Shown piece after piece: positions 283 through 59,747 of a DNA stretch of 64,000 nt (positions within the stretch are counted from its first letter, which is position 1; each line of letters opens with the position of its first letter). The position numbers were made by a program, and so were the translations under genes. The notes under the pieces were generated by a model that worked only from the letters and a program-made list of their open reading frames with translations, was not told the origin of the DNA and did no database searches. The stretch is from IMG/VR virus record IMGVR_UViG_3300028859_000013, positions 1-64,000 of that record. One strand, given 5' to 3'. Source of the DNA: a virus.

Positions 283-489
283 CATCCATGAAGTTTTTGT
301 ATCTATAACGTAAATAAAAATCCATCCACTATTTTTTATATAACCATTATTCATATCATATATTTGTTGCTTTAAAAAATCATCAAATTTAAGTTTATTT
401 AATGAGATTTCAAAATATGGTTCATCTGTATTTATTTTCCAAAATTTACCTTCTTCTTTAGAATTTTCAAATATTTTTATATATTTCAT
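277..489 (-). CDS. MKYxKxFE-family small protein, probably truncated by the IS607 insertion
   Basis: Starts MKYIKIFE. TTAATATATA lies just upstream. Lacks the KFN[LI] end of many family members. Confidence 0.6.
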   Translation of the reverse strand: MKYIKIFENSKEEGKFWKINTDEPYFEISLNKLKFDDFLKQQIYDMNNGYIKNSGWIFIYVIDTKTSWMG

Positions 490-567
490 ACTTATTTATA
501 TATTAATTTTTATTTTATAATTTTCTGTGAAGTTATTTTTATATATACTTTAAAATAATTAATATAA

Positions 568-1125
568 ATGAAGAAACTATTTGAAGAATATGTAGAATCT
601 GCTGATTATAAAATTTCAGTATTTTTTAAAGAATTAAAATCTCAAATTGAAAGATGGTTTACTGAAGGCTCATTGGCTGCTCAAGGTTGTGCATTAGATG
701 GACAAATTGATATATCTAATTCAAATCCAATGGAGAAATTTTTAATTTTTAATTTTTCTGAGCCTATAGAAGAAACTAAAAATAAAAAAGATGAAGATGA
801 AGAAAATTCTATTTTTAGATATAGAGTTATATTTATGGTTAGACTTGATGAAATGAAAGGTACAGATAACTCTCAATCACAAGGAGATGGTACTGCACCA
901 ATAGAAACTCCAGTTGAAGGTAAATCACTTGAAATAAATAAAGTATTATTGAAAATTCATCAATTTGATGATGATATGAAAGAAAAAGGTGAATTAGTAG
1001 AAGAAGTCAATGTTGAAGATATAAAAGAAGATTTTATTATTGATAAAATAGGTCAATTAAAAGATAAATCAGATGATAAAGGAATAGATCAAAATGATTT
1101 AAAAGATAATATTCATACACAATGA
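568..1125 (+). CDS. Hypothetical acidic protein with CTS-like N-terminus (MKKLFEEYVE)
   Basis: 185-aa ORF. TTTTTATATATA upstream. Confidence 0.7.
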   Translation: MKKLFEEYVESADYKISVFFKELKSQIERWFTEGSLAAQGCALDGQIDISNSNPMEKFLIFNFSEPIEETKNKKDEDEENSIFRYRVIFMVRLDEMKGTDNSQSQGDGTAPIETPVEGKSLEINKVLLKIHQFDDDMKEKGELVEEVNVEDIKEDFIIDKIGQLKDKSDDKGIDQNDLKDNIHTQ

Positions 1126-1574
1126 TAATAGTCGCAAATACATCAATGTTAAATATATTTAGAAAAATTTCAATATTTAAAATGGATCTAGGTTCTAATT
1201 TTATTGATTTGAAACAAGAAACCGTAATGCTAAAAGATCCGTTCATGATTAAATATTTTAATATGACAGGAACACAAATTTTAACATATGGTTCAATAGG
1301 AAAATTAATTTTTTATCAAGATTTTAATTTATCATCAACTGAATTTTATATATTTAATGAAGAAACTATTTATAGTATGCTTTATACTAAAGATGATATG
1401 AAAATGTCGCCAGAAAATTATTTAGCATCTATTGTTAAAGAGATAAATGAAAAAGAAGGAATTAAAGATAATATTGATAAACCTATTAAAAAATCAGATC
1501 CAAATATTAAATTGCCTACTGATCAATATATTGAAGAAATGATAAAGAAAAGAAAATTAGAAGGAAATGAGTAA
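1122..1574 (+). CDS. Hypothetical protein (weak resemblance to a gp23 capsid segment)
   Basis: 150-aa ORF overlapping both neighbours by a few bases. Confidence 0.7.
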   Translation: MIIVANTSMLNIFRKISIFKMDLGSNFIDLKQETVMLKDPFMIKYFNMTGTQILTYGSIGKLIFYQDFNLSSTEFYIFNEETIYSMLYTKDDMKMSPENYLASIVKEINEKEGIKDNIDKPIKKSDPNIKLPTDQYIEEMIKKRKLEGNE

Positions 1575-2826
1575 TAAAAATTATGTTATTGATAATATTG
1601 TGGTTAATAATCATGGTCTTTTAGGATTAACTCCCAATAACGAAACCGTATATACTCAGCCATCATTACCAAAAATTATTCGAAGAGTAGTATTGGAAGA
1701 TGTTACAGGAGATGCTGAAAAAGTTACAGCGAGAACTAAAACTCCGCCAAAATCTATGTATGAATATGGAGTAAATGATAATGTAACAGGAACTTGGATT
1801 GAAAATGTCACATTAAGAAATAAAACTCCTAATAATGAACAATTATTTACTAATAATGTAGTGAATAAAACTCCTAATAATGAACAATTATTTACTAATA
1901 ATGTCGTGAATAATACATTGACTAATGAACAATTGTATGATGAAAATACAAAAAAGAATAATGTATTAACTAATGAAGAATTGTATGATGAAAATACTAA
2001 GGTCAATAATACATTAACATCAGAATCATTATATGATGAAAATACTAAGGTTAATAACACATTAACATCAGAATCATTATATGATGAAAATGTAATAAAA
2101 AATAATACTTTAACATCAGAATCATTATATGATGAAAATACTAAGGTCAATAACACATTAACATCAGAATCATTATATGATGAAAATACTAAGGTCAATA
2201 ACACATTAACATCAGAATCATTGTATGATGAAAATATTAAAGCTAATAATACATTAAATAACGAACAATTATATGATGAAAATACAATAAAAAATAACAC
2301 ATTAACATCAGAATCATTATATGATGAAAATACTAAGGCCAATAACACATTAACATCAGAATCATTATATGATGAAAATGTAATAAAAAATAATACTTTA
2401 ACATCAGAATCATTATATGATGAGAATACAAAAAAGAATAATACTTTAACATCAGAATCATTATATGATGAAAATATTAAAGTTAATAATACATTAAAGA
2501 ACGAACAATTATATGATGATAGTATAAAAATAAATAATACTTTGAAGAGTGAACAATTGTATGATGAAAATACAATAAAAAATAATACATTAAAGAACGA
2601 ACAATTATATGATGAAAATACTAAGGTCAATAACACATTAACATCAGAATCATTATATGATGATAGTATAAAAATAAATAATTCACTTAAAAATGAAATA
2701 TTATATGATAATATAATAGTTAATAATACATTGGATAATGAAGAATTATATGATAATAAAGATGGTTTTACTCCAACTAATAAAATAGAAAAAGTAGATT
2801 CGTTATATATTAACAGTAATAATTAA
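1567..2826 (+). CDS. Tandem-repeat protein (about 20 units of 15-16 aa, NNTLTSESLYDENTKV)
   Basis: 419-aa ORF with the repeat visible in both protein and DNA. Confidence 0.8.
   Translation: MSNKNYVIDNIVVNNHGLLGLTPNNETVYTQPSLPKIIRRVVLEDVTGDAEKVTARTKTPPKSMYEYGVNDNVTGTWIENVTLRNKTPNNEQLFTNNVVNKTPNNEQLFTNNVVNNTLTNEQLYDENTKKNNVLTNEELYDENTKVNNTLTSESLYDENTKVNNTLTSESLYDENVIKNNTLTSESLYDENTKVNNTLTSESLYDENTKVNNTLTSESLYDENIKANNTLNNEQLYDENTIKNNTLTSESLYDENTKANNTLTSESLYDENVIKNNTLTSESLYDENTKKNNTLTSESLYDENIKVNNTLKNEQLYDDSIKINNTLKSEQLYDENTIKNNTLKNEQLYDENTKVNNTLTSESLYDDSIKINNSLKNEILYDNIIVNNTLDNEELYDNKDGFTPTNKIEKVDSLYINSNN
1819..2756 (+). repeat. Coding tandem repeat, 48-bp period (45-bp units at the ends)
   Basis: Core ACATTAACATCAGAATCATTATATGATGAAAAT recurs every 48 bp. 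Two 15-aa units, sixteen 16-aa units, then two degenerate units. Confidence 0.95.
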
Positions 2827-2874
2827 AAAAATTTAAACTATGAGATTATTTTTCATAGTTATATTATAATGTGT

Positions 2875-2882
2875 TATCTTTG
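2875..2882 (+). promoter_or_regulatory. Bacteroidota-type -7 promoter element TAnnTTTG (TATCTTTG)
   Basis: Exact consensus match 37 nt upstream of ORF 2920. Confidence 0.6.
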
Positions 2883-2919
2883 TATATAAATTATAAATTA
2901 ATAATTAAAAAATATAATT

Positions 2920-3717
2920 ATGAGTATTCTAAATTATAAAGGTTTTTTGGATATAAAGTATAAGAATGAACTAATTGATAAAATTCTTACTATAATTGAG
3001 CCAACGTTAGAAGATTTGCTGACTAAATATGAAGAAAGCAATTTCGATGAAACAGGTAGATATTTTACAGAATTTCAAAAGGAAAATACATTATTGTATT
3101 TGATATTTGATATGGTGAAATCTATTGAAAAATATACAAAGTCATCTGATAAACTTATTGATTTGAGAACAAGATATTCTAATAAAGGAAATCTTGAAAT
3201 TTATGCAGAAATACAAAGAGATGAAGTATTTTATCCATTTTCTACTGAAGTTATAATAGCAGGTGGATATAATATTCAAAAATCTCATTATAGATATATT
3301 ACTAAAACTACTTTACCTCAAACTAATAATTCTGAGTTGACAAATATTTATGCAGAAAAAATTAAGAAATTAAATAAAACTGAAAAACTTCAAAAAGAAA
3401 TTGAGTATTATAAAAATATCATTTCATCTGCTGAAAAAGAAATATCAGAATCAATTAAATTATCAGATAAAGATATTTTTAATTTATTGCTAGATGAATC
3501 ATATGGTAGACTTATGTTGTTAACTTGGGAAACATTAGATAATGAATCTCATTCTAAACAAAATAATACTAAAGAAAGTTGGAATAAAGAACATCAAGAA
3601 TATGTAGATTACCTTATTGATAATTGGAAAAAACAACATATTTATTGGAAACAAGATAGAATAAAATCTTCCGAAATATCAATTAAAAAAATTAAAGATA
3701 AAATAAATAAATTGTGA
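2920..3717 (+). CDS. Hypothetical protein, coiled-coil C-terminal half
   Basis: 265-aa ORF downstream of a host-type promoter. Confidence 0.75.
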   Translation: MSILNYKGFLDIKYKNELIDKILTIIEPTLEDLLTKYEESNFDETGRYFTEFQKENTLLYLIFDMVKSIEKYTKSSDKLIDLRTRYSNKGNLEIYAEIQRDEVFYPFSTEVIIAGGYNIQKSHYRYITKTTLPQTNNSELTNIYAEKIKKLNKTEKLQKEIEYYKNIISSAEKEISESIKLSDKDIFNLLLDESYGRLMLLTWETLDNESHSKQNNTKESWNKEHQEYVDYLIDNWKKQHIYWKQDRIKSSEISIKKIKDKINKL

Positions 3718-4193
3718 TGATAGATAAATATGATAAATATAATTCAAGAATATCTTCAAGAAAATATATTGAGAAATTAGCAAAATCTATTTTACTATTA
3801 TTTAATCATATTATCAAAGAAGAAAATATTGATATTAAAATTAAACATAATTCATGGTGGAAATCAGAGAATGAATATTATATAAATTTTTATAAAGATG
3901 ATATCACATTAAGTAACATTTTTCATATTACATTTGATACTAAAGATAGCAAATTTGATGAATATGGTCCTTATATTCAAATAGCAATTGAAAATGGTAG
4001 TAATATAACAGATATGATAAAATGTGAAAAATTTTTATTGTTTATTAAAAAAATAATTTCTCCATTTGATTATAGTGGACAATATTATTTATTTTCTAAT
4101 TCATTTGATATAGATTCTATTCCATATTTAATTAAAGAGTTATCCATTAAAGATTATGATTTTTCAAATGATATTAAAAAATTTAATATTTGA
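3714..4193 (+). CDS. KFN[LI]-tagged family protein (ends KKFNI)
   Basis: ORF track. ATG at 3717 is the likely start. Confidence 0.75.
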   Translation: MMIDKYDKYNSRISSRKYIEKLAKSILLLFNHIIKEENIDIKIKHNSWWKSENEYYINFYKDDITLSNIFHITFDTKDSKFDEYGPYIQIAIENGSNITDMIKCEKFLLFIKKIISPFDYSGQYYLFSNSFDIDSIPYLIKELSIKDYDFSNDIKKFNI

Positions 4194-4672
4194 TTATGCT
4201 GAGAAAATATAATGAACATGTAATTTATACAGATGAATTTTTGTCACACCTTGATACTCATTATAAAGTAATCAAAATATCAGATAAAATCGTTGAATTT
4301 TTAAAGAATATTGATGATAATTTATACTATGTTACTAATTCTCCTCCAGATTATGAACATATGATAACTATTAATAGATATGAATTTCCTACTTCAGAAT
4401 CAGATGTTATTTTTTATATTCTTTTTACAATAAATGATAATGTTGATATTAAAATAGATTTTCATTGGGGTAAATCTGTAATAGAGTATCATAAAAATAA
4501 ATGGTTGCTTGAATTATCATTTCTAAGACATCTAATGTCAGCAAAAGAAGATTATGGTAAGTATTATAGTTTTTCGACTATTATTAAGCAGAATGATGTA
4601 GATAAACTCATTTCTACTATAAATATAAAATATTTTAATTTATATAAAGATAGTTTAAAATTTAATTTATAA
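4190..4672 (+). CDS. KFN[LI]-tagged family protein (MLRKYNE...LKFNL)
   Basis: ORF track. ATG at 4196 is the likely start. Confidence 0.75.
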   Translation: MIMLRKYNEHVIYTDEFLSHLDTHYKVIKISDKIVEFLKNIDDNLYYVTNSPPDYEHMITINRYEFPTSESDVIFYILFTINDNVDIKIDFHWGKSVIEYHKNKWLLELSFLRHLMSAKEDYGKYYSFSTIIKQNDVDKLISTINIKYFNLYKDSLKFNL

Positions 4673-4700
4673 AAAGCTGAAATTTAATTTCAGCTTTTTT
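4671..4700. terminator. Bidirectional intrinsic terminator
   Basis: AAAAAGCTGAAATT-T-AATTTCAGCTTTTTT hairpin between convergent genes. Confidence 0.8.
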
Positions 4701-4704
4701 GTTT

Positions 4705-5355
4705 TTAGAATGATACTTTTTTAAGAATTTCGTTGTGGTGAGAAAATGCTAATTGTGATTTTGATGCTCTATTTAATAACATCCATTTTCCATTTTTAGC
4801 ATCATCATCAAATGATAATTCGGATGTATTTTTTATATGAATGACAAAAGGAAATGTGAAGAAATTTATTTCCCTTGGATCCGTGGTTCTTATCATATCT
4901 AATGGTTCTATTCCTTTTATATCGTCACTTTTTGCCTTTGTTTCTTCCGTTAGTTCTCTGAGAACTGCTTGTTCAGGTGTTTCTCCTGCATCAATAAAGC
5001 CTCCTGGTAAAGCCCAACCTCTACCATCTTGTCTTTCTATTAGATAAACTCTACCCTCTCTTAAAGCCACTGCATCTACTGCAAAATTTGCAACATATGT
5101 TATTATATTATCATCAATTGTTTCAAAATATTTAGTTATTGGATGTCCAGAGTTCACAAAATTTGCAAACTTATCATCAATTAATGTTAATTTTCCTACT
5201 TGCTCTTTTTGTAAAATAAATTCTTTTCTATCATCTGTTTTATAAATCCAGTTTCCTTCGGAATCTTTATTTATTGATATAATAGTTACTAATTTACTCA
5301 AATCGAAATTTGATAAAGATTCATTCATATTAAATTTTTTAAAATTTGTTATCAT
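4705..5355 (-). CDS. Nudix hydrolase (ADP-ribose pyrophosphatase-like) with CTS-like N-terminus
   Basis: Nudix box GWALPGGFIDAGETPEQAVLRELTEET, AVDAV strand, DPR and LAFSH motifs. Starts MITNFKKFNMNE. Confidence 0.85.
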   Translation of the reverse strand: MITNFKKFNMNESLSNFDLSKLVTIISINKDSEGNWIYKTDDRKEFILQKEQVGKLTLIDDKFANFVNSGHPITKYFETIDDNIITYVANFAVDAVALREGRVYLIERQDGRGWALPGGFIDAGETPEQAVLRELTEETKAKSDDIKGIEPLDMIRTTDPREINFFTFPFVIHIKNTSELSFDDDAKNGKWMLLNRASKSQLAFSHHNEILKKVSF

Positions 5356-5358
5356 TAA

Positions 5359-5610
5359 TTATATTTCTATTTTTTCGAAAGGATGAGTGATTTTTATTTC
5401 TTCATCTTCCTGATTTAGTACCATATCTAAATTATTGACAATTTTATCAACATCAAAATATTTTATATTTTTTTCTGAAAATGTTCTAGCATCTTCTATA
5501 TCTAATACAAGCATTTCTCCAATAACATCATCCATATATAAATAGTAATTATCATATTTATAAACGTATTTTTTGAATAATGAGCCTTCAAATTTTTTTA
5601 CATGTTTCAT
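5359..5610 (-). CDS. MKHxKxFE-family small protein
   Basis: Starts MKHVKKFE. Confidence 0.7.
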   Translation of the reverse strand: MKHVKKFEGSLFKKYVYKYDNYYLYMDDVIGEMLVLDIEDARTFSEKNIKYFDVDKIVNNLDMVLNQEDEEIKITHPFEKIEI

Positions 5611-5629
5611 ATTTGCCTGTATTTATTTT

Positions 5630-5941
5630 TTAAAAATTATGCCATTTTGATTTTGATGGTTCTTTCATTGAATCTACTCCATGTTCAAATCCGCCTATGA
5701 AATCTTCTTCAGAAAAATTATCATCATCCATATATTGATATATTGTTTGTCCGATAAAATTTCCTAAATCTGCAAGTGTGTTTCCAACTAATTTTTCAGT
5801 ATTTAATTTTGATATTAATTCGTTTTTTATTATTTCAAATTTATCAAAATTATTGTCTATCTTAGAATGCTCAATAGGATCATTTACATCTTTTATAAGA
5901 TTTTTTAAATTATCATTCTCATTAAATTTTTGAATTTCCAT
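5630..5941 (-). CDS. Small protein with CTS-like start (MEIQKFNE)
   Basis: 103-aa ORF. TATATTTG at 5956-5963 (minus) upstream. Confidence 0.7.
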   Translation of the reverse strand: MEIQKFNENDNLKNLIKDVNDPIEHSKIDNNFDKFEIIKNELISKLNTEKLVGNTLADLGNFIGQTIYQYMDDDNFSEEDFIGGFEHGVDSMKEPSKSKWHNF

Positions 5942-8641: not shown

Positions 8642-8977
8642 TTATAAATTGAATTTTTCTGCATTTTCTTTCATTTTAAATTTTTCTATTTCCTTTGGAG
8701 TTGCATATCTTAGTATTTTATTAATATCAAAACATATTATATCTTCACAAAATTCAAACATAGGCATTGGTAAATTTATATATCTTAGATAAATAAAATC
8801 ATTTTCATTTCCGTCTATTTCCATATCTATTATTTTTCCGGCATTATTATTTAAATAATTATTTACATCGTTAATTGTGTATTCGTTATTCGTTTCTGTC
8901 CAATTAACGTTACCTATAACAAAATCTCCAATTTTATATTTATTTTGATTATTTTCAAAGTATTTTAAATATTTCAT
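8642..8977 (-). CDS. MKYLKxFE...KFNL family protein (KOW/SH3-like core)
   Basis: MKYLKYFE, KIGDFVI, NNNAGKI, ends EKFNL. Confidence 0.8.
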   Translation of the reverse strand: MKYLKYFENNQNKYKIGDFVIGNVNWTETNNEYTINDVNNYLNNNAGKIIDMEIDGNENDFIYLRYINLPMPMFEFCEDIICFDINKILRYATPKEIEKFKMKENAEKFNL

Positions 8978-8987
8978 GAATTATTAT

Positions 8988-9680
8988 TTAATTAATTATA
9001 GTTGATGTGCCTATTCGATCTACGTATTGCTTAATTTCTTTAATTTGTTCATTAACTCGTACTCCCCCCGTGAATTTAATTTTAACATATTCAGGTAGAA
9101 TTTTTCTCATAAATTTAACTTTTTCAATTTTCTTTTCAAATGAGTCATCATTTGGTAGTTTACCAGTTGATGTTGATATATAATCTACATTATTTTCAAT
9201 GCATATTCTACAAATTTTTTCAATTTCTTGATAATTAAGTGCGCCTATTTCAATTGTTAATTTTATGATAGAACCTTCTTTATGACAATATTCAGTTAAT
9301 TTTCTAATTTCTGTTTCTATTTCTTCCGTTTTATCATCACTTTTAATTAATTGATAGTTGAGTACGACGTCAATTTCATCAGCTCCATTTACAATTGATT
9401 TATCAATTTGATCAAGTTTGTATTTAGTAATTGATGTACCTTTTGGAAAATCAACTAATGCAGATACTTTAATTTCATTTTTAACAAATGAATAAACTGT
9501 TGCTACAAATTCGGGTAATACTGATATTGCATAAAAATTATTATCTTCTGCTTCTTTACAGATATCTTTAATTTGATCATTAGTTAAATTATCTGATAAT
9601 TTAGTATAATCAATTAATTTATAATTTTCATTCTTTTCTTTATTATCTAAATATTCGAATATTTTTTTATAGACAATCAT
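8988..9680 (-). CDS. deoC: Deoxyribose-phosphate aldolase-like protein, Schiff-base Lys apparently lost
   Basis: IDYTKL, VDFPKG, GADEIDVV, IKLTIE, GGVR and RIGTS motifs. DYISTSTG stands where DeoC has DF[IV]KTSTG. Confidence 0.85.
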   Translation of the reverse strand: MIVYKKIFEYLDNKEKNENYKLIDYTKLSDNLTNDQIKDICKEAEDNNFYAISVLPEFVATVYSFVKNEIKVSALVDFPKGTSITKYKLDQIDKSIVNGADEIDVVLNYQLIKSDDKTEEIETEIRKLTEYCHKEGSIIKLTIEIGALNYQEIEKICRICIENNVDYISTSTGKLPNDDSFEKKIEKVKFMRKILPEYVKIKFTGGVRVNEQIKEIKQYVDRIGTSTIIN

Positions 9681-9730
9681 TTTTGTAACGTTATTTTTTC
9701 TATATATATTAAAAAATAATAATCAAATTA

Positions 9731-10258
9731 ATGACTGCAGGAAGAAATAGTATATCAAGTAAAAAAGATTGGAATACACCACCTAAATTTGTAGAATTGA
9801 TTAATAAAATGTTAGGTGATATAATATTAGATCCTTGTAGTAATAAAAATAGTATAATAGATGCTAAGATTAAGTATATTTTGCCAACTGATGGATTAAA
9901 AGAAGATTGGAATTATAATACAATATTTGTAAATCCGCCATTTGGTAGAATTGTTGAAAATAAAACATCATTATATAATTGGATTGAAAAAGGGGTTGAT
10001 GCGAATGAGAATTATAAAAGTGAAATTTTATATTTAATTCCAGTTGCAACTAATACTAAGCATTTTAAAGATTTAATTTTCAAAAAAGCAAAAGGATTGT
10101 GTTTTTTAAAAGATACAAGATTAAAATTTTGGAGTGAAGGAGTTGAAGATAAAAAAGGTGCTCCAATGGCTTGCTGTTTTATATATTTTGGAGAGAATTA
10201 TGGAAAATTTCATTTATTATTTTCTGACTTTGGACAATGTTTTGAAATAAAATCATAA
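9731..10258 (+). CDS. Phage DNA N6-adenine methyltransferase (Dam-like)
   Basis: DWNTP, LDPC, DGL..DW, NPPF, L.P..T and RLKF motifs. Confidence 0.8.
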   Translation: MTAGRNSISSKKDWNTPPKFVELINKMLGDIILDPCSNKNSIIDAKIKYILPTDGLKEDWNYNTIFVNPPFGRIVENKTSLYNWIEKGVDANENYKSEILYLIPVATNTKHFKDLIFKKAKGLCFLKDTRLKFWSEGVEDKKGAPMACCFIYFGENYGKFHLLFSDFGQCFEIKS

Positions 10259-10600
10259 GTTGAATTTATTTGCAGATAATGACAAATAATATTTTTCTGA
10301 TTCTTCTGGTGTAGCTTCTCTTGTGAAGAATAAATCTTTTTCTGTTAGAGTTTTAATATATTTCAATGTTTTATTAAAATCTATTTCTGTTCCATATTTA
10401 TCAGATGTTTTTGATGTACCATCATAACCGTTATCAAAAATGTCATATAAATAAAATATTGTTTTTGGCTCAATATTTCTGTGTTTATACGGCTTAATTT
10501 TACCAATTGTTATATATCGAATAGTATGATAAATATATATTTTATTTGTGTCAATATTATATTCTTCATCAAATGTTTCAAATATTTTTAAATGTTTCAT
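10253..10600 (-). CDS. MKHLKIFE...NKFNL family protein
   Basis: Both terminal motifs present. Confidence 0.8.
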   Translation of the reverse strand: MKHLKIFETFDEEYNIDTNKIYIYHTIRYITIGKIKPYKHRNIEPKTIFYLYDIFDNGYDGTSKTSDKYGTEIDFNKTLKYIKTLTEKDLFFTREATPEESEKYYLSLSANKFNL

Positions 10601-10602
10601 TT

Positions 10603-10968
10603 TTATAAATTAAATTTTTCTGTTTTTATTATTAATGAAAGTTTATCTATAATATCTTTTGAATTATTAGATTGATAAATTATCATATCATTTAATTTTT
10701 CAGTATATATGTATTCTATATTATTCTTTCTTTCACATCTACGATCACTAAAATTGTGCTCATTTTGATATTCATAAACTATTTTTAATTTTTCTTTTTC
10801 ATAATTATTTATACCACTATCATTAGGTAAAATTTTATATATTACATATACTGGCTCTTCACCCTCGTTGTGATAATTTCTATCCCATCTATCACTATAA
10901 CTAAGTTTACATAGAATATATTTTTTTAAATCTGTATTTAACCTTTCAAATGTTTTTAAATATTTCAT
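10603..10968 (-). CDS. MKYLKTFE...EKFNL family protein (paralog of 10970-11338)
   Basis: Shares GEEPVYVI and EYQ.EHN.SDRR with its neighbour. Confidence 0.8.
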   Translation of the reverse strand: MKYLKTFERLNTDLKKYILCKLSYSDRWDRNYHNEGEEPVYVIYKILPNDSGINNYEKEKLKIVYEYQNEHNFSDRRCERKNNIEYIYTEKLNDMIIYQSNNSKDIIDKLSLIIKTEKFNL

Positions 10969-10969
10969 G

Positions 10970-11338
10970 TTATAGATTAAATTTGTTTGTTTGTATAATT
11001 AATGATAGTTCATCAAAAACATCTTTTGATGTATTAGCTTGATATACTATTTTATCATTTAAGTTTTTAAAACGGTAATATTCCTTGTTGTTAATCTTTC
11101 CCATTCTACGATCACTATAATTGTGTTCGTCTTGATATTCGTATAATATTTTTAATTCTATGTCATATAGATTATCATTATTAATATTAGAATACATATG
11201 TAAAACTTTGAATATTACATATACTGGTTCTTCTCCTTTATTATAAAAATTTCTATTCCATCTATCTTCTTTGTTGAGTAAACAAAGAAGATATTTTTTT
11301 GGATTATTTAATTTTTCAAATGTTTTTAAATATTTCAT
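10970..11338 (-). CDS. MKYLKTFE...NKFNL family protein
   Basis: Both terminal motifs present. Confidence 0.8.
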   Translation of the reverse strand: MKYLKTFEKLNNPKKYLLCLLNKEDRWNRNFYNKGEEPVYVIFKVLHMYSNINNDNLYDIELKILYEYQDEHNYSDRRMGKINNKEYYRFKNLNDKIVYQANTSKDVFDELSLIIQTNKFNL

Positions 11339-11919
11339 TAATCTACAATTTTTAATTTTGAGCCGTCTTTTATTAAAGATTTTATTTCATCTGTACTAAT
11401 ATTTTCTTTGAATTTAGATGTTTTCTTTTCTGTTTCTTTTAATATCCAGTTATTGCCAGAATTTGATGTTTGATAAATGTATATAATATTATCAAAAGTT
11501 AATTTTATAGTTTTTGCTGTTAGTTTTTTATAAAAATCTTCAACTTTACTGTTAATTGAATATATTTCAATAGGATGCCATTTATCATCTTTATAATATT
11601 GTAAAATTAAAAAATTAGGATTATCTAGAACAGTTTCATTTCTACTATAAAGAAAGAAGAATTTCATATCAATATCTTTTCTTAAAAAATTTTCAATTTC
11701 CATTGTAGAAAGAATTTCTCCTTTTTTAAGATTTTGTTTAAATAATTGATTATTAAAATCACTATCATCATATAAAAATTCTATAGTTTTATTTAGATAA
11801 TCATCATTAGATAAACCAATTTTAAAGAAGTCTACTTTAGTGTCATTTATGCTGTTTAATAATCCATCAACATCAGTTGTTATTGATTCTTTTATGTATT
11901 GTAAGTATTTTGTTATCAT
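11338..11919 (-). CDS. Hypothetical protein with CTS-like start (MITKYLQYIKE)
   Basis: 193-aa ORF inside the array. Confidence 0.75.
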   Translation of the reverse strand: MITKYLQYIKESITTDVDGLLNSINDTKVDFFKIGLSNDDYLNKTIEFLYDDSDFNNQLFKQNLKKGEILSTMEIENFLRKDIDMKFFFLYSRNETVLDNPNFLILQYYKDDKWHPIEIYSINSKVEDFYKKLTAKTIKLTFDNIIYIYQTSNSGNNWILKETEKKTSKFKENISTDEIKSLIKDGSKLKIVD

Positions 11920-11924
11920 GTTTT

Positions 11925-12224
11925 TTATAAATTAAATTTTAGCGATGCTTTTTTAATTTCAAATTCTTCTATTTCTTCTTCATTTAATTTTCTTTCAAAA
12001 TATTTATCAGGTAAATAAAATTTTTTTATTGTATTATTTGATATTACTTCAATCGCATACCTAATTTCATAATTTCCAATAATTTTAGCAAATTTAAAAA
12101 CATCTTGTTTTTCTATTGCCCACTTTGATTTCCAAAAATCAATATAATATTTTTTAATTAGAATATAATCATCAACATTATAATCTATATTTTTATTGTC
12201 TTCAAATGTTTTAATATATTTCAT
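11925..12224 (-). CDS. MKYIKTFE...LKFNL family protein (paralog of 12569-12868)
   Basis: Shares DYILIK.YYI.FWKSK with 12569-12868. Confidence 0.8.
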   Translation of the reverse strand: MKYIKTFEDNKNIDYNVDDYILIKKYYIDFWKSKWAIEKQDVFKFAKIIGNYEIRYAIEVISNNTIKKFYLPDKYFERKLNEEEIEEFEIKKASLKFNL

Positions 12225-12275
12225 TAAAAATTATTTAAATTTTTTATTGACAACAACGTTGTCATAAGTTATATG

Positions 12276-12551
12276 TTATATGTTATATTTTCTTGAAGCT
12301 AAAAATGCTTCAACATCTTCTTTATTTTTGGAATGATATTCTATTTGTGATATTTTCCACCATATTTTATCATTATTACATTTTAAACATATATTATATC
12401 CAGGTTCTGAAAAATTATATGATATAACTTCACAAGGTTTATCTAAAAAATGTTTAAAATTTGAATGAGGATTAATATCATTTTTTAGCACAGCATAGTC
12501 GCCTACTTTTATATTTGTATTTGCATTTTCAAATGTTTTGATGTATTTCAT
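12276..12551 (-). CDS. MKYIKTFE...RKYNI family protein
   Basis: Family-type start at 12551 (ORF track extends to 12572). KVGDYAVL core. Confidence 0.75.
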   Translation of the reverse strand: MKYIKTFENANTNIKVGDYAVLKNDINPHSNFKHFLDKPCEVISYNFSEPGYNICLKCNNDKIWWKISQIEYHSKNKEDVEAFLASRKYNI

Positions 12552-12568
12552 ATTAGTATAATTTTTTA

Positions 12569-12868
12569 TCATAAATTAAATTTTAATGTATCTTTTATTG
12601 TATCAAATTCTAATATTTCTTTTTTTGTTGATTTTCTTTTTATTATTGCGGCATCTGAGTAAATAACATTCATATTATTATCTTGAATAACAGAAATTGT
12701 GTAGTATAGTGTATTTCCATGTTCATAATCAAAATCTATAATTTTACCTGTTTTAAAAATGCCTAGTTTTTTTGATTTCCAAAAATTAATATAATAATCT
12801 TTAATTAGAATATAATCATTAATATTATATTTTTCTTTTTTTATTTCAAATGTTTTTAAGTATTTCAT
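12569..12868 (-). CDS. MKYLKTFE...LKFNL family protein, first gene of the left array
   Basis: TTTTTAATATATA lies a few nt upstream of the ATG. Confidence 0.8.
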   Translation of the reverse strand: MKYLKTFEIKKEKYNINDYILIKDYYINFWKSKKLGIFKTGKIIDFDYEHGNTLYYTISVIQDNNMNVIYSDAAIIKRKSTKKEILEFDTIKDTLKFNL

Positions 12869-15188: not shown

Positions 15189-15190
15189 AT

Positions 15191-16641: not shown

Positions 16642-16726
16642 AATATCTAATTGTTTTATTTTTTATATAATAAAAAAATTATATTGTTTATTCAATGAAC
16701 TTATATTTTTTAATATATAATAAAAA

Positions 16727-53816: not shown

Positions 53817-53851
53817 AAAAAAGAGAAATGATTAAATCATTTCTCTTTTTT
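53817..53851. terminator. Bidirectional terminator
   Basis: AAAAAAGAGAAATGATT-A-AATCATTTCTCTTTTTT. Confidence 0.8.
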
Positions 53852-54251
53852 ATATGTTAAATTTTTTAGTGCTTTTTGCTAATTCTAATTCAGTTTCTAA
53901 CTTGCCTTTTTTATGATTATATAAAGTGAATGATTGAGTTTTATTTATTTTCCGATCTGTCAACTCATACCATTTATTATTCATTTTTACTAATATATCA
54001 GATTCATAAGTACTTGATAGTTCATCTACTAATTTAATATCTTCACACCTCCCAGTTATACTTTTATTTATAGTTAAATAATTAAAATCATACTTATAAA
54101 TTTTAAAGCATTGAAATGTTATCATATGATTTAATATCATTTCAGAAATTAAATCAAAAAAATCAATATTATATGTTATGCAGTCATTCATTAAATTCAT
54201 GATTGATATTTCTGTGTTGCGTAAATCTTCAAAGGTTTTTATATATTTCAT
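53850..54251 (-). CDS. MKYIKTFE...KKFNI family protein
   Basis: Both terminal motifs. TTTAATATATA lies 5 nt upstream. Confidence 0.8.
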   Translation of the reverse strand: MKYIKTFEDLRNTEISIMNLMNDCITYNIDFFDLISEMILNHMITFQCFKIYKYDFNYLTINKSITGRCEDIKLVDELSSTYESDILVKMNNKWYELTDRKINKTQSFTLYNHKKGKLETELELAKSTKKFNI

Positions 54252-54296
54252 GATATTATATATTAAATTAAATATTTATTTTTTATATATAATGCT

Positions 54297-54656
54297 ATGA
54301 AGCATTTAAAAATATATGAAGCATTTAAAGAATCTGATGTCAAAATAGGAAATTATGTAATATTAAACGTTAAATTTAAAGATTTTGGATATTCTTTATC
54401 TGATAATCAAAAAAATACTCTTGTCGAATATTTAAATAATACAATATGTGAAATTGTTAATATAACTACTAGTTATTCTGGTATCCAAGAGATAGATGTT
54501 AAATATAATAATATACCGTTTACTCTTAATGATTGGTTCGGTGTAGGAAGAACTATTACATTAGATATTACAGATATTTTTGATATGTCAGATTCAAAAA
54601 AAGAACTAATTGATAGACATAATTTAAGGCAAGTAGTAAATAAATTTAATATATGA
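54297..54656 (+). CDS. MKHLKIYE...NKFNI family protein
   Basis: Both motifs. KIGNYVIL core. Confidence 0.8.
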   Translation: MKHLKIYEAFKESDVKIGNYVILNVKFKDFGYSLSDNQKNTLVEYLNNTICEIVNITTSYSGIQEIDVKYNNIPFTLNDWFGVGRTITLDITDIFDMSDSKKELIDRHNLRQVVNKFNI

Positions 54657-54958
54657 AGTATTTAAAAATATATGAAAAATATAATAATTTGCCTATTCTT
54701 GGTGATTATGTCGTAGTTTATTGTGAATCAATGAATGAAAAATTTAACGATTTTATAAATAATAATATTGGTAAGTTAAATAATTACGGTAGAATAACAG
54801 ATCTTGCTTGGGTTGAGTATTTTAATATTCCAGAAGAATTAAAAAAACATTTTGATGATGATAAATATGCTATACTTAATACAAATACTATTAAATATTT
54901 TTCTAGTGACAAAAAAAATGTAGAAGCGTATTTGAAAGCTCAAAAATTTAATATATAA
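54653..54958 (+). CDS. MKYLKIYE...QKFNI family protein
   Basis: Both motifs. LGDYVVV and NNNIGKL. Confidence 0.8.
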   Translation: MKYLKIYEKYNNLPILGDYVVVYCESMNEKFNDFINNNIGKLNNYGRITDLAWVEYFNIPEELKKHFDDDKYAILNTNTIKYFSSDKKNVEAYLKAQKFNI

Positions 54959-54961
54959 AAT

Positions 54962-55477
54962 ATGAAATTGAAAAGATTTAATGAAAGTGTTCATGAAGAT
55001 TATGTCGAAATACTTCAAGATAAAATTAAAAATGATAAAAAAATTATTAATAGATTTGAATTTTATTTTGATAACATGAGTAATACATTTGAATGGGATT
55101 CTGATAATATTACAATATTTGCAACTCCTTATTGGGAAGAAAATTTAAATTTACCTATTGATATTCTTATTGATGATACCGATCGTAATATTGTTTTTGA
55201 ATTAAAAGAATTAACTTCACAAAAAGACGTTGATAATACTATAAATTATTATTATGAAATAATAGATTCATTAACATTAAAATTAAATAAAATATCAGAA
55301 TTGAATAGTGTTATTCCTATTATATTAAATAAATTGAGTATTATAAAATTTGATAATATTATTATAAAATCTATTGACGATATAAAAAAATATGATATTG
55401 ATGAATTAGTAAAATTATATAATTACTTATATAAACAATATCCTGAAATATTTTTAGCTAAAAATTTTAATATATAA
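54962..55477 (+). CDS. MKLKRFNE...KNFNI family protein
   Basis: Variant terminal motifs around an unrelated core. Confidence 0.8.
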   Translation: MKLKRFNESVHEDYVEILQDKIKNDKKIINRFEFYFDNMSNTFEWDSDNITIFATPYWEENLNLPIDILIDDTDRNIVFELKELTSQKDVDNTINYYYEIIDSLTLKLNKISELNSVIPIILNKLSIIKFDNIIIKSIDDIKKYDIDELVKLYNYLYKQYPEIFLAKNFNI

Positions 55478-55480
55478 AAA

Positions 55481-55822
55481 ATGAAATATTTAAAAAAATT
55501 TGAAAGTTTCAATTGGAATTCTTTAATAGATATTAAAATAGGAGATTATGTGATAATTGATTCTAGTAAATTGTCAAATTTTATGATTAAAAATAATGTT
55601 GATATATATAGAAATTTTTTGAATAGTAATATAGGTAAAATTATTAATATTAGTCGTGTGCTTGATAATATTAGAGTTAAATATGAAAATATACCTGATA
55701 TTATTAAAGATTATTTTGAAGAAGATAATTCTATATTTTTACATCCGTCAAAAATAAAATATTTTTCTAAAACAATAGATGACTTAAAATTGAAATTAGA
55801 TACTGATAAATTTAATTTATAA
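55481..55822 (+). CDS. MKYLKKFE...DKFNL family protein
   Basis: Both motifs. KIGDYVII and NSNIGKI. Confidence 0.8.
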   Translation: MKYLKKFESFNWNSLIDIKIGDYVIIDSSKLSNFMIKNNVDIYRNFLNSNIGKIINISRVLDNIRVKYENIPDIIKDYFEEDNSIFLHPSKIKYFSKTIDDLKLKLDTDKFNL

Positions 55823-55825
55823 AAA

Positions 55826-56521
55826 ATGAAATATTTAAAAAAATTTGAAGGATTGATAAAAACTTATGATTATAATATAATCATAAAATTATTAAATAAT
55901 TTACTTGTTAAATATAATGAAAATGATAGTAATATAAGGCAATCCGCACAAGGTATTTATGCTAGATTTTCAAAAAAATTCATTAAAAAATCATATCTTG
56001 ATATTTTAAATATATTGAAAGTTTGTGGTTATGTAATATCTTCATATAGTTATGATGAGAAAAAAAGAATTAATAAACAACCAGAAAATAATAATATTTT
56101 ATCTGATATTTATACATATATTAATTTTACACTTATAAAAAAGTTTGATATCGAAAATATAGATAATATAGATAATTTATATCACGTTACTGATAAAAAA
56201 AATATTAAAAATATATTAAAAAACGGATTAATTCCAAAATCAAATAATAAAATAGAATCACATCCAGATAGAATTTATTTAATGAGTAATTTAACTGGAG
56301 CTAATCATTATTTGCGATTACTAGAAGATAAATATGGAGATTATTCTGGCGATAGGTTTATAATATTAAAAATTAATAAAAAATTAATAAATATAAAATT
56401 ATATTATGACCCAATGTATCTTAGGTCAGAAAAAAACGTTGAAGTATCTGGATTTGACGCATTTTATACATATGATAATATTTCACCTGATTCTATAGAA
56501 TTACTTACTATTGATTATTAA
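55826..56521 (+). CDS. MKYLKKFE-tagged protein with ADP-ribosyltransferase-fold (Tpt1/DarT-like) C-terminal domain
   Basis: LYHVT...NI..IL.NGL.P, RIYL, ILKI, and Y....I.P..I motifs. Confidence 0.65.
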   Translation: MKYLKKFEGLIKTYDYNIIIKLLNNLLVKYNENDSNIRQSAQGIYARFSKKFIKKSYLDILNILKVCGYVISSYSYDEKKRINKQPENNNILSDIYTYINFTLIKKFDIENIDNIDNLYHVTDKKNIKNILKNGLIPKSNNKIESHPDRIYLMSNLTGANHYLRLLEDKYGDYSGDRFIILKINKKLINIKLYYDPMYLRSEKNVEVSGFDAFYTYDNISPDSIELLTIDY

Positions 56522-56691
56522 AAATATGTCATAGTTAATAGGTGTAATCTTTTTTTAAATTTACATTATAAATATCTTTAATTTTTGTATATGTTTCCTT
56601 CTATGAATTCTAATATAGAATCATAAAAAAGTTTCATATTTATTTTTTAATGTAAACAACATTATCACCAATTTTAATATTTTATGATATT

Positions 56692-57009
56692 TTATATTAA
56701 CCAATTATTTTCATCAATAATCTCAATTTCTAATATTATTTCATTATCTTTTTTTAAATATATTTTATTATCGTCCCATTTCTGATAAGTATTAACATTT
56801 AGTGTAATATTATTAAATAAACCAACAGTATATATTTTTTGATCTTTATTTAAACTTGGTAATTTATATAAACTACTATCACACAAAATAGTAGCAATAT
56901 TTCCATTTGTTTCTATATTATCAACATTTTCATCAATGTGTGATATGATATCATCTTCTAATTGTTTTTGTGATAAAATACCGGTTTTTTCTGTTATTTT
57001 AATTTTCAT
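56692..57009 (-). CDS. Hypothetical protein, possible truncated gp23 capsid-like fragment
   Basis: ETNGNIATIL...YTVGLFNNITLNVNTYQKWDD. Confidence 0.55.
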   Translation of the reverse strand: MKIKITEKTGILSQKQLEDDIISHIDENVDNIETNGNIATILCDSSLYKLPSLNKDQKIYTVGLFNNITLNVNTYQKWDDNKIYLKKDNEIILEIEIIDENNWLI

Positions 57010-57592
57010 GTTTTTTAATTATTTTTATTATATAATATGCTTTTTCAGGAAACATTCCTATATCAATTAATGCTATTTTAATATTATTTTTATCATTTAA
57101 AGCATTTTCGTTAGTAGCTACAATGATACCTGGCTGATCAATATTAGTTTTATACCCAAATATGATTTCGTCATTTAAATATTCAGAAATAATGATAGGT
57201 ATATTAATATTTTTTTCATTTATAATATCTATTAAATCATTATTGTTTTTTGTGATATGTATTTTTTTAGGTATTATAATAAATTTATCATCATATCCAA
57301 TTTTGATAGTTGATTCTTTTAATATTTTAAAATTATCATTAATATAATTCGCTATTTCATCAATATTAATATTAATATTTGTTGAATTTCTTTTAATATC
57401 TTTAATTTTATTTATAAAAATTTTTTCAATAAGTTCAGGAATATTTTCTAAATCATCAATTTTAAACGTGCCTGCAGATACTGTCTTAGTATATACATTA
57501 TTATCTTCATTAACATATAGTAAAGATATTTTTTCTAAATTGTCAGTTTCTTTTACTGATATATAATCTAATGTTTTTATTTTTTCTAACAT
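56999..57592 (-). CDS. Hypothetical protein resembling the C-terminal part of gp23-type major capsid proteins
   Basis: IIISEYLNDEIIFGYKTNIDQPGIIVA. AAAC-N16-TATATA at 57609-57634 (minus). Confidence 0.55.
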   Translation of the reverse strand: MLEKIKTLDYISVKETDNLEKISLLYVNEDNNVYTKTVSAGTFKIDDLENIPELIEKIFINKIKDIKRNSTNININIDEIANYINDNFKILKESTIKIGYDDKFIIIPKKIHITKNNNDLIDIINEKNINIPIIISEYLNDEIIFGYKTNIDQPGIIVATNENALNDKNNIKIALIDIGMFPEKAYYIIKIIKKHEN

Positions 57593-57640
57593 ATCATTTT
57601 TATTTTAATATATATACTAATAAAAAATAAGTTTAAAAAT

Positions 57641-58384
57641 ATGAAGACATATATTCAATTTATAAATGAAGCAAGTATTGGAGATCTTTTTAAAAATCAA
57701 GTAGAACTATTTCTATCTAATGATAGAGAAGATAAACAATTGTTTGCTGAAAGTAAAACATTAGGTAAAAAAATTTTAGAAGATTCTACCATTGTACTTA
57801 AATGTAAAAATTATATAATTAATTCATTTTCTCAAATGGGATATGATAAATTAAGCATAGAAAATATAGAATTAACTTTTTATGAACCTGAAAATATAAT
57901 AGTCGGTATTATTCCAGATGGAGTTCTAAAAAATTTTGGTAAAACTGGTCATAGTGTATCTTTAAGAAAACTTAATATAATAGTTTTTGAAAAATCTCAA
58001 TGGAAAAATGATGTTGAAGGTTGGATAATACATGAAGTTGGTCATGTTATATCTTGGAGAGATTATAAAGATTCACCGAAAATAAAAAATGAATTTATTA
58101 CTGGAACTAAAGTCGATGCTAATTCTAATGTATTTGACTCAAAAGATTGCTTCGGTTATAATGGATATCCAAATGTTTGGTTCGAATATATACCATTTAT
58201 AAATCAAATTAAATTTTTATTGAAATCAAATTCTCCAGAAAATACAATTAGATTAATGATGAAAGATTATGAAGTAGAACATAATCCTGACGAATTGATG
58301 AAATATGAACAAATTTTTATAAATTATTTGAATTGCGTATTAGGTGAAAAAAGTGAAATAAAAAATAAATATATAACATTATAA
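57641..58384 (+). CDS. Protein with T4-CTS-like start (MKTYIQFINE) and HExxH zinc-metalloprotease motif
   Basis: WIIHEVGHV with a downstream E in WFEY. Confidence 0.7.
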   Translation: MKTYIQFINEASIGDLFKNQVELFLSNDREDKQLFAESKTLGKKILEDSTIVLKCKNYIINSFSQMGYDKLSIENIELTFYEPENIIVGIIPDGVLKNFGKTGHSVSLRKLNIIVFEKSQWKNDVEGWIIHEVGHVISWRDYKDSPKIKNEFITGTKVDANSNVFDSKDCFGYNGYPNVWFEYIPFINQIKFLLKSNSPENTIRLMMKDYEVEHNPDELMKYEQIFINYLNCVLGEKSEIKNKYITL

Positions 58385-58395
58385 AAATAATAAAG

Positions 58396-58773
58396 ATGAA
58401 AAAAATAAAAACATTCGAAAATTTTACAGCACAAAATGAAATTAATGTTATTATTGATACTTCTGCAAGTATGTCAGATGATCAATTACAAAAAGCTATA
58501 ACTGAAATAGATATGATAGATGATTACTGTTGTAATATTAATGTTATACAAGTATCAGATAAAATTGATGATGTTACTGTAATTAATAATATACATAATT
58601 TATTATATTTGAAATTTAAATTTGGTGCTGGAGGTTCTGATTTACGTGCAGCAATAGATTATATTATTGATAATGACTTAAATGATAATAAAACATATAT
58701 TATATCAGATTTCATTTTACCTAAAATAGATTTCTCAGAATTATCAGATTACGAAAAAATAGTAGTAGAATAA
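58396..58773 (+). CDS. Stand-alone vWA domain with MKKIKTFE start
   Basis: NEINVIIDTSASMS, GGSD and IISD motifs. Resembles the C-terminal domain of 42920-44506 (NEINVLLDTSGSM). Confidence 0.8.
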   Translation: MKKIKTFENFTAQNEINVIIDTSASMSDDQLQKAITEIDMIDDYCCNINVIQVSDKIDDVTVINNIHNLLYLKFKFGAGGSDLRAAIDYIIDNDLNDNKTYIISDFILPKIDFSELSDYEKIVVE

Positions 58774-58814
58774 TTAATTTTATTCTTGATATATTATAAA
58801 ATAAAATATGAAAT

Positions 58815-59066
58815 ATGAAATACTTAAAAAAATATGAGATCGTTAATCAAAACCCAAAAATTGATGATTATGTTATTTTAAATGATATGCCATCAGTAAT
58901 AGGTAGAATAAAAGAAGTCAATAGAAATTTTACATATTATATTAAATTTATAGGTAATAGTTATATTACTGATAGAAGAGTTTTTTCAACATCTGAGATT
59001 AAATATTGGAGCGAGAATAAGAAAGAATTAGAGTTAATAGCTGATACAAATAAATTTAACATATAA
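58815..59066 (+). CDS. MKYLKKYE...NKFNI family protein
   Basis: Both motifs. KIDDYVIL core. Confidence 0.8.
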   Translation: MKYLKKYEIVNQNPKIDDYVILNDMPSVIGRIKEVNRNFTYYIKFIGNSYITDRRVFSTSEIKYWSENKKELELIADTNKFNI

Positions 59067-59076
59067 TATTTAAAAA

Positions 59077-59565
59077 ATGAAGACATATATACAATTTATA
59101 AAAGAAGATAATAATTAAAAATTATCTGATGATAAATATGAAATTAAATATGAAAAATGGAAAAAATCAGATTATTCTGAATGTTATATGGCATATAACC
59201 TTTATAAAAATGATCAATTAGTAGCTGGTATTTCAAATGATAGTAAAGATAAAATGAAAGTTGTTGTTAGACACATTGAAAATTTTTCAACTGAAAAAGG
59301 AATGACAACAAAATTATTATTTATGTTGTTAGATATGAATGTTTCTATTGATACTGGTAAACCAAATTATAATTCAATTTCAACTACTGCATATAATATG
59401 AATAAAAAAATAGTGGAAATAATAAATAATAGTAAAGGTAAATATAAAGCAACTATTTTAGGTCCTGCTAATAATAAAGGCAAAGAAAATGAAGAAAAAT
59501 ATAAAGATGTCGCAGGTAAAAATACTAAATCAGATAATTATCATTATAGATTTCAAAAAATATAA
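59077..59565 (+). pseudogene. CTS-tagged gene interrupted by in-frame TAA (59116-59118)
   Basis: MKTYIQFIKEDNN*KLSDDKYEIKYEKWKKSDYSECY reads in frame into ORF 59188-59565. Confidence 0.65.
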
Positions 59566-59747
59566 TATATAAATCTATTATATATAAATATTTTTTTTTA
59601 CTTTTTCATTTTTTATTAAAATACTCAATATATAAGCACCTATTTAGGTAAATAAATTTATTTATTGGTTTTTTTCATTACAGTGTGTTAGATTTAATAT
59701 ATAGACTGAATTATATATTTAATTTATAAAAAATAATCTAATAAAAA

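Follow-up and report, generated by a model that had tools for sequence, protein, structure and literature searches.

The DNA analysed here (the window) is the first 64 kb, positions 1 to 64,000, of the 111,323-bp IMG/VR virus record IMGVR_UViG_3300028859_000013, whose full length we call the contig (G000). It has a GC content of 23% and a CheckV completeness of 16%, which implies a genome of several hundred kilobases. The phage of this contig belongs to a huge-phage clade with a greatly expanded multigene family of small, fast-evolving, mostly acidic proteins that carry two tags: an N-terminal leader of 8 to 10 residues ending in Glu, and a C-terminal tail built around K-[FY]-N-[LI]. At the locus 53850-59565, ten open reading frames (ORFs) have the leader and six of these also have the tail. 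Its features are the following (window coordinates, strand in parentheses; leader classes are described below).

53850..54251 (-): 133-aa member, leader MKYIKTFE, tail KKFNI; no other member resembles it in the middle part
54252..54296: intergenic region between divergent genes; promoter-like motifs (T-rich plus ATATATA) face both arrays
54297..54656 (+): 119-aa SH3-like (GDYV/GNYV) member, leader MKHLKIYE, tail NKFNI; its stop and the next start overlap as ATGA
54653..54958 (+): 101-aa GDYV member, leader MKYLKIYE, tail QKFNI
54962..55477 (+): 171-aa member, class-2 leader MKLKRFNE, tail KNFNI
55481..55822 (+): 113-aa GDYV member; in its model, an SH3-like barrel, the leader (residues 1-10) is disordered and the tail hangs free after a C-terminal helix (99-111)
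55826..56521 (+): 231-aa protein that has leader MKYLKKFE and no tail; weak hints, below threshold, of an ART fold (Tpt1, DarT)
57641..58384 (+): 247-aa HExxH protein, class-4 leader MKTYIQFINE, no tail
58396..58773 (+): 125-aa VWA-like (DUF2201) protein, leader MKKIKTFE, no tail
58815..59066 (+): 83-aa member, leader MKYLKKYE, tail NKFNI
59077..59565 (+): gene with class-4 leader MKTYIQFIKE, no tail; in-frame TAA at 59116-59118, the same frame continuing into ORF 59188-59565

Census of leaders and tails

A preliminary description of this DNA had listed 15 ORFs ending exactly in [KN][FY]N[LI]-stop, and all 15 do. In total the window holds 15 such tails and 16 strict leaders (pattern MK.[LIVM][KQR].[FY][EN]), which occur together in 12 ORFs. 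The count of about 25 leader-bearing ORFs given in the same description is also right once the variants MKLKRFNE, MEIQKFNE, MITNFKKFNMNE, MKTYIQFINE, MKTYIQFIKE and MITKYLQYIKE are included. Order-2 Markov simulations of the 111-kb contig give a chance expectation of 0.2 tails, 0.05 leaders and no ORF with both, and the reversed contig sequence contains no tagged ORF.

The family extends well beyond the window. Scanning IMG/VR gave 43 loci from large viral contigs, 730 kb in sum, and the census of both termini across relatives that had been proposed with the preliminary description added 316 unique tagged ORFs from these loci. Of these ORFs, 174 have both tags; under the strict pattern, 121 have just the tail and 21 just the leader. 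Most of the proteins that count as tail only by this pattern bear a variant leader. The phage of the contig and its close relatives have dozens to more than 100 of these small genes per genome, encoding proteins mostly of 90-180 aa, and among the tagged ORFs of the IMG/VR loci and in LR756502 the leaders are absent from large housekeeping or structural enzymes. The counts below, for five partial records of the tail-bearing lineage (G000-G004), LR756501 and LR756502, were made with the class-1 leader pattern and with a strict tail pattern, AAATTYAAYWTATRA, which captures about 60% of the tails and gives 0-2 matches in reversed-pattern controls.

G000 (the contig of the window), 111 kb: 13 tail matches, 15 leader matches
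G001, 501 kb: 1 tail match, 26 leader matches
G002, 330 kb: 85 tail matches, 56 leader matches
G003, 222 kb: 73 tail matches, 48 leader matches
G004, 215 kb: 57 tail matches, 46 leader matches
LR756501, 735 kb: 2 tail matches, 0 leader matches
LR756502, 642 kb: 4 tail matches, 16 leader matches

The highest density of strict tails is one per 3 kb of contig. The two tags do not always travel together. The 16 leader proteins of LR756502 (45-250 aa) are encoded by scattered single genes, not arrays, and have no common C-terminal end, no tail and no Pfam domain. The leader, being more widely spread, is therefore the older of the two elements, and the tail was added later, in one sublineage. In the 501-kb record, which comes from a more distant lineage, proteins of locus L022 have the leader, but their tail is shifted: KKYNI, then one or two further residues (IL, IGL or IAL); hence, a free carboxylate directly after [LI] is not universal. 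The idea of one two-ended system is therefore overstated, as the tags can be separated.

Seven metagenomic homologues of ORF 55481, with identities of 33-98%, all retain both ends, and an alignment of 12 sequences (six of these homologues and six paralogues from the window) has M1, K2, K5, E8 and the K and N of the tail as invariant positions. Wider searches returned little. A tblastn search with one member against cultured and GenBank phages gave no match, the ESM Atlas returned only unnamed viral clusters, and a two-tag profile found only four matches among 1.8 billion representatives, being too weak to gauge how far the family is spread.

Conserved ends and unrelated middles

Leaders fall into four classes: MK[YH][IL]KxFE (class 1, the commonest), MK[IV]x[KR]FNE (class 2), MITKFK[IL]FE (class 3) and MKTYIQF(I)NE (class 4, represented in the window by MKTYIQFINE, MKTYIQFIKE and MITKYLQYIKE). 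The terminal Glu is nearly invariant in every class, and the class of the leader does not co-vary with the variant of the tail. At the other end, the tag had been described as four residues, which is too short: in the largest subfamily the conserved C-terminal end spans about 20 residues, a helix followed by [AST]-x-K-[FY]-N-[LI]. The core common to the whole family comprises about 6-8 residues, situated at or at most two residues from the free C terminus, and it is preceded by an amphipathic helix whose sequence varies with the type of cargo.

The proteins between these ends are very diverse, as the preliminary description had claimed. After trimming the first 10 and last 22 residues, 340 proteins fell into 140 BLAST clusters. 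When the 21 clusters with at least three members were compared with hhalign, no pair reached a probability of 90% and one pair reached 50%. The largest cluster (101 of 340 sequences) is the SH3-like GDYV group, and the second and third largest are ankyrin-repeat (Ank) and leucine-rich repeat (LRR) proteins recognised by Pfam. NUDIX, DUF7487 and ExoX-like_C are also found as cargo, together with more than 100 types that have no match. The Ank members occur in relatives, not in the window; one of them, L031:15496-16263, matches Ank_2 (PF12796) with an E value of 1.8e-18, and helix pairs are apparent both in the 21-member alignment of this cluster and in its AlphaFold model. Among the orthologues, the middles have a ratio of nonsynonymous to synonymous substitution rates (dN/dS) of about 0.4, which indicates real, fast-evolving genes. 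The median isoelectric point (pI) of the proteins is 5.2, with 67% below 6 and 16% above 8.

The GDYV core had been called KOW/SH3-like. The AlphaFold model of ORF 55481 is compatible with the SH3-like class, as it predicts a barrel with a mean predicted local distance difference test (pLDDT) of 84. The KOW assignment is less secure: Pfam is silent on the GDYV members, and KOW is one of several best structural matches (NdhS/PsaE, chromo, Tudor, PWWP and KOW domains) with Z scores of 5-6.2 and Foldseek E values of 0.02 or worse.

These results bear on the idea that the family is a single fast-diverging domain family whose conserved ends are structural parts of one fold. The size of the SH3-like cluster would suit this idea, as would the C-terminal helix, which packs confidently on the barrel in the model. 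Yet the same ends are borne by unrelated ankyrin-repeat and LRR folds, and the middles of the 21 clusters have no profile similarity. In the models of the GDYV and ankyrin members (both with pLDDT 84), pLDDT stays below 50 over the first 10-15 residues, which form no secondary structure, and a confident C-terminal helix is followed by 3-4 non-helical end residues. A single structural family is unlikely on these grounds, and since the evidence already contradicts it, we give it almost no weight. The preliminary description had named one ordinary domain family with structural ends as the finding that would count against it; what we found instead is unrelated folds with tags lying outside them. 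Sequence comparison and modelling together give good support to the view that the two ends are portable protein-level motifs set on unrelated cargo.

Is it the peptide or the nucleotide sequence that is conserved? Leader codons make use of synonymous alternatives at background frequencies (AAA 91%, GAA 91%; ATA, ATT, TTA, TTG, ATC and CTA are all in use at position 4), which points to selection on the peptide. Replacements within the tags are conservative (F/Y, I/L, Y/H, K/R). Among orthologues of ORF 54962, which are 46-63% identical overall, the first nine residues are invariant. A 711-kb contig carries an orthologue of the same ORF, P0015.

The tail is a more complicated case. It had been argued that the C-terminal tag survives synonymous changes and is thus selected as protein; the synonymous variation is there, but it is not neutral. 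The last sense codon, which supplies the A of the ATG of the next gene, is ATA or TTA in 87% of the tails and has A as third base in about 95%, ATT being nearly absent as opposed to 49% of background Ile codons. The Asn is encoded by AAC in 43% of cases versus 11% in the background, and this bias is also present in uncoupled genes. TGA serves as stop in 51% versus 23%, owing to the ATGA overlap with the next start in about half of the genes. The AAC bias and the NTA last codon, the latter seen even where no gene follows, are not fully explained by start-codon overlap or by avoidance of the promoter motif.

Such biases raise the possibility that the conserved unit is a nucleic-acid junction of about 40 nucleotides, i.e., the last five codons of one gene and the first eight of the next, serving as promoter, coupling or recombination element and spread and homogenised by duplication and gene conversion, with the peptides as passengers. 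The arrays are translationally coupled, with the next ATG at most 8 nucleotides away from the tail in 236 of 311 cases and half of the stops being the TGA of an ATGA overlap, as this explanation would have it; yet the tail is also kept in 52 of 64 (81%) uncoupled leader-bearing ORFs, including those directly before terminators or facing convergent genes, compared with 121 of 130 coupled ones. The preference for A as last base and the four-fold enrichment of AAC even in uncoupled genes also speak for a nucleotide-level element. So does the fact that leader class tracks the array and not the cargo; LR756502, however, has its leaders on single genes. The sequence AAATTTAATATATAA includes the promoter-like core of the clade, ATATATA, but this core is found in only 25 of 312 tails (8%), at 0-3 nucleotides from the next ATG, and AAC, TTA and TGA each break it. 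The complete promoter-like motif (T-rich, ATATATA, then A/C/G) precedes 29% of long unrelated genes at a modal distance of 19-22 nucleotides from the ATG (examples in the window are 54283-54291, 59578-59586 and 12880-12890). A dual role of the tail codons as promoter is, hence, mostly unsupported. Adding that synonymous sites of the leader vary freely, that replacements are conservative for the protein and that Ank and LRR folds bear the tags, the tail being preceded by an in-frame helix, we regard a purely nucleic-acid junction element as unlikely, and the junction explanation at large as improbable.

Leaders, proheads and tails

The capsid-targeting sequence of T4, MKTYQEFIAE, is removed by a single cut after Glu, and any protein fused to it gets packed (PMC8442874). 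The internal proteins of T-even phages are highly diverse and have only this sequence in common (PMC3012670). Proteases of the S80 and S77 families cut always after Glu (PMC5694885), and the giant phage SPN3US packs about 50 different head proteins (PMC7411985). The leader MKTYIQFINE of ORF 57641 is identical to the T4 sequence at 7 of 10 positions, in agreement with the close match noted in the preliminary description. A T4-like leader of about 10 residues is found in class 4 only; classes 1-3 have just a basic-aromatic-Glu pattern in common.

A close relative provides the context of the head genes. L042 is a 17-kb contig with the gene order of positions 95-111 kb of the contig and a portal 91% identical to its counterpart there, and it bears tagged members. 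Its genes are arranged as portal, a 167-aa gene, a 780-aa protease-scaffold (14425-16767) and the major capsid protein gene. The N-terminal domain of the 780-aa protein matches Peptidase_S80 with 24.6 bits (curated cut-off 23.4) and S77 with 21 bits, and the rest consists of at least eight tandem repeats, Y[ST]EY[IL]AE-NLD-x-x-I. The same fusion is encoded by LR756501 (L057:3914-6337) and LR756502 (L074:1501-3600), with 8-14 repeats of 14 residues (Y[ST]EY[IL]AE[NH]LD.NI) across these proteins. The scaffold repeat and the T4 targeting sequence have a heptad in common, Y.[EQ][FY][IL].E, which recurs at the N termini of three window ORFs (57641, 59077 and 11338(-)) and of two proteins in relatives, one of them starting MIKKYSEYIKE. 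Outside scaffolds it has 13 matches in 197,588 aa, and the N termini of these five proteins account for the 5 at residues 4-5. These coincidences hint that T4-type targeting sequences could act by mimicking a scaffold repeat. In the major capsid protein of relatives, a conserved NV[AG]Y block follows an N-terminal region whose last residues, [LM]-N-E, resemble the F-N-E and I-N-E ends of leaders; by analogy with the position at which T4 gp23 is cleaved, this may be the maturation site.

We propose that the leader would be a T4-type capsid-targeting propeptide, in effect a copy of one scaffold repeat unit (Y-x-[EQ]-[FY]-[IL]-x-E), that co-assembles with the scaffold core of the prohead and is cut off after Glu by the scaffold-fused prohead protease of the S80/S77 family. 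The proteins would then ride in the very large capsid and enter the host along with the DNA, forming a library of small binders or effectors; their small size suits passage through the phage tail. The C-terminal tail would be a second, later-acquired linear motif for one shared partner, acting as a docking, retention or ejection handle. For this explanation as a whole we would put the probability at about 0.45.

Several observations weigh against it. Class 1, the commonest leader, lacks the hydrophobic P3 residue of T4-type sites: this position has F, I or L in classes 2-4 but K, T or a variable residue in class 1. The cargo is mostly acidic (median pI 5.2), as opposed to the highly basic internal proteins of T4. 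Pfam searches of the partial records G000-G004 for S77, S78 and Gp23 gave no match, and none of these records has a protease-scaffold gene; the contig itself ends 3.5 kb past the portal. At a density of up to one tail per 3 kb, more than 100 different proteins would have to be packaged, a number without precedent, although the roughly 50 head proteins of SPN3US weaken this objection. The array-specific classes of leaders would equally result from gene conversion. Finally, the tail has no likeness to scaffold C termini: a position-specific scoring matrix built from positions -20 to -5 of the family ranked those of LR756501 and LR756502 no better than 20% and 67% of background C termini, respectively. 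The searches for a partner of the tail, among PDZ domains and a neighbouring AAA ATPase, found none. In sum, the link of the leader to T4 capsid targeting, made in the preliminary description, is strengthened by the relative's protease-scaffold and the class-4 heptad and weakened by the misfit of the commonest class to the T4 site rule. A role of the leader as T4-like capsid-targeting sequence is plausible, with mimicry of a scaffold repeat and a protease specific for Glu as a candidate mechanism, but least so for class 1.

The main rival to packaging is a library of intracellular binders. These would be early proteins for host takeover or anti-defence, with variable cores that bind host targets and with a constant tail, perhaps also the leader, linking every member to a single partner, for example a protease, an unfoldase or a pathway of timed degradation, so that the tags would work as adaptor or degron. 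In architecture they would be like poxvirus Ank-PRANC or F-box proteins. Ank, LRR and SH3-like cores are classic protein-binding scaffolds, and small, acidic, fast-evolving proteins (dN/dS about 0.4) resemble many phage early proteins. The tail, at or within two residues of the free C terminus, is placed like signals of the ssrA, PDZ and PTS1 types; yet a search of four tag-bearing contigs and LR756501 found no phage-encoded PDZ domain that could read it. Arrays are found not just close to head genes but among accessory ones as well (DeoC, Dam, NUDIX, homing endonucleases), though the AAA ATPase next to one array is not conserved beside arrays elsewhere. The explanation also leaves the likeness of the leader to the scaffold repeat and to T4, and its universal terminal Glu, without a reason. 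We consider it rather unlikely.

The pattern of the tail is what one would expect of a short linear motif recognised by a single common factor. As a model for the tail, the C terminus of the LR756501 scaffold was rejected: its IEAYLK looks by eye like VEAYLK of ORF 54653, but a C-anchored matrix and a hidden Markov model gave no signal and we attribute the likeness to chance. The AAA ATPase at 12907-14097 was dropped as a conserved partner, as relatives do not have it beside their arrays. It is a classic AAA (PF00004) protein, transcribed divergently from the second array, and its N-terminal domain of about 200 residues has no match.

Compared with the targeting-sequence internal proteins of T4, the family is alike in having an 8-10-residue leader ending in Glu on small, otherwise unrelated and diverse proteins (PMC3012670, PMC8442874), and in the T4-type head module of L042 (portal, protease of the gp21/gp175 family, scaffold). 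It is unlike them in numbers (from tens to more than 100 genes in a genome, against 3-4 in T4); in its four leader classes, the commonest of which is off the hydrophobic-x-Glu rule; in its acidic cargo, that of T4 being basic; and in its conserved C-terminal tail, which T4 lacks. Giant phages like phiKZ and SPN3US process many head-internal proteins after Glu by a gp21-related protease (PMC5694885, PMC7411985), and L042 has a match to Peptidase_S80. However, most propeptides of SPN3US exceed 100 residues and have no short leader in common, the site is A/G/S-x-E and no common C-terminal motif has been described, and in the phages studied here the protease is fused to a repeat scaffold.

Other systems offer parallels for the tail and for the arrays. 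In encapsulin cargo-loading peptides and in the C-terminal helices of phage scaffolds, a short C-terminal element suffices to place cargo in an HK97-fold shell. The tail is like these in being terminal, portable and common to unrelated cargo, and unlike them in that it has no sequence likeness to the scaffold C termini of related phages; we know of no encapsulin motif of the form K-[FY]-N-[LI]. Among eukaryotic viruses, poxvirus Ank-PRANC proteins and the multigene families of African swine fever virus, and among pathogens the effector repertoires with short PEXEL or RxLR leaders, are large lineage-specific expansions in which ankyrin or other binder cores, otherwise unrelated, have a short constant terminal signal in common. 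They are analogous to the tagged phage family in architecture only, since the organisms, machineries and motifs differ. Promoter-early stem-loop cassettes are short junction repeats in hyperplastic regions of T4-type phages that may promote modular shuffling. The tagged arrays resemble them in having junction repeats and array-specific leader classes, and differ in that the repeat lies within coding sequence, is conserved as peptide and not as DNA, and is mostly without a promoter core. Literature and family libraries gave no description of the leader or tail motif.

A stronger version of the proposal is that a two-signal code loads at least 100 small binders or effectors, with a clipped leader that mimics the scaffold and a K-F-N-L/I tail that docks for retention or ejection. 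We think it doubtful in this full form. If true, phages would have their own equivalent of the effector repertoires known from bacterial secretion systems, and the tags could address any protein to the capsid; being short and portable, they could serve to load foreign proteins into phage capsids. If the tags are sorting signals, a large-capsid virus would deliver at infection a big and quickly diversifying set of proteins, far beyond the 3-4 of T4. That leader, scaffold repeat and T4 targeting sequence match one another also points to a simple, testable mechanism, in which cargo bears one scaffold repeat. To our knowledge, the mechanism of capsid targeting is not settled even in T4. Should the proteins turn out not to be packaged, a family with up to one gene per 3 kb and more than 100 unrelated cores between two invariant peptides would still need explaining, and it is a rich source of candidate host-interaction proteins.

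Further members and neighbouring genes

The other tagged genes of the window form two clusters, the first at 277..5941 and the second an array of eight members at 8642..12868 (-), with DeoC and Dam genes between the first two members.

277-489 (-), 5359-5610 (-), 5630-5941 (-): first cluster, leader only
3714-4193 (+), 4190-4672 (+): first cluster, tail and variant leaders
4705-5355 (-): first cluster, NUDIX protein with leader MITNFKKFNMNE
8642-8977, 10253-10600, 10603-10968, 10970-11338, 11925-12224, 12276-12551, 12569-12868 (all -): members of the array
11338-11919 (-): array member with class-4 leader MITKYLQYIKE, no tail

At the locus described first, the HExxH protein (57641-58384) adjoins the VWA-like DUF2201 protein (58396-58773), each with a leader. 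The pair resembles a split version of a metallopeptidase-plus-VWA protein that is usually one chain. Further HExxH proteins are encoded at contig positions 96694-97593 and 107921-108814. The gene at 59077-59565 starts MKTYIQFIKEDNN, and its in-frame TAA could be a nonsense mutation, a sequencing error or a site of read-through.

Next to this locus, 59748-60311 encodes a baseplate or tube-like protein with 49% identity to one of the uncultured phage LR756501. The T4-type portal lies at contig positions 106025-107782 (Pfam Portal_T4, E value 9e-65). Its C-terminal end is a long low-complexity stretch of Gly, Gln and Ala with GGGQAQ repeats, as in L042 and LR756501. Between the portal and the end of the contig lie an inserted HExxH gene, a tagged gene and a homing-endonuclease-like gene. 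Degenerate gp21-like and gp23-like ORFs considered at contig positions 97.9-98.9 kb were rejected, as they had no PHROG hits and Pfam S77 and Gp23 had no match in the whole contig.

Large repeat-rich genes that look like homing endonucleases are found at 6705-8549(-) and 51847-53601(+) of the window and at 103001-103988 and 109482-111119(-) of the contig. They bear DUF7487 or GYWTEDKLQEEANKY-type repeats, and one of them is inserted directly past the portal region. Finally, a 419-aa ORF at 1567-2826 of the window consists nearly entirely of about 20 tandem 15-residue repeats (NNTLTSESLYDENTK and variants).

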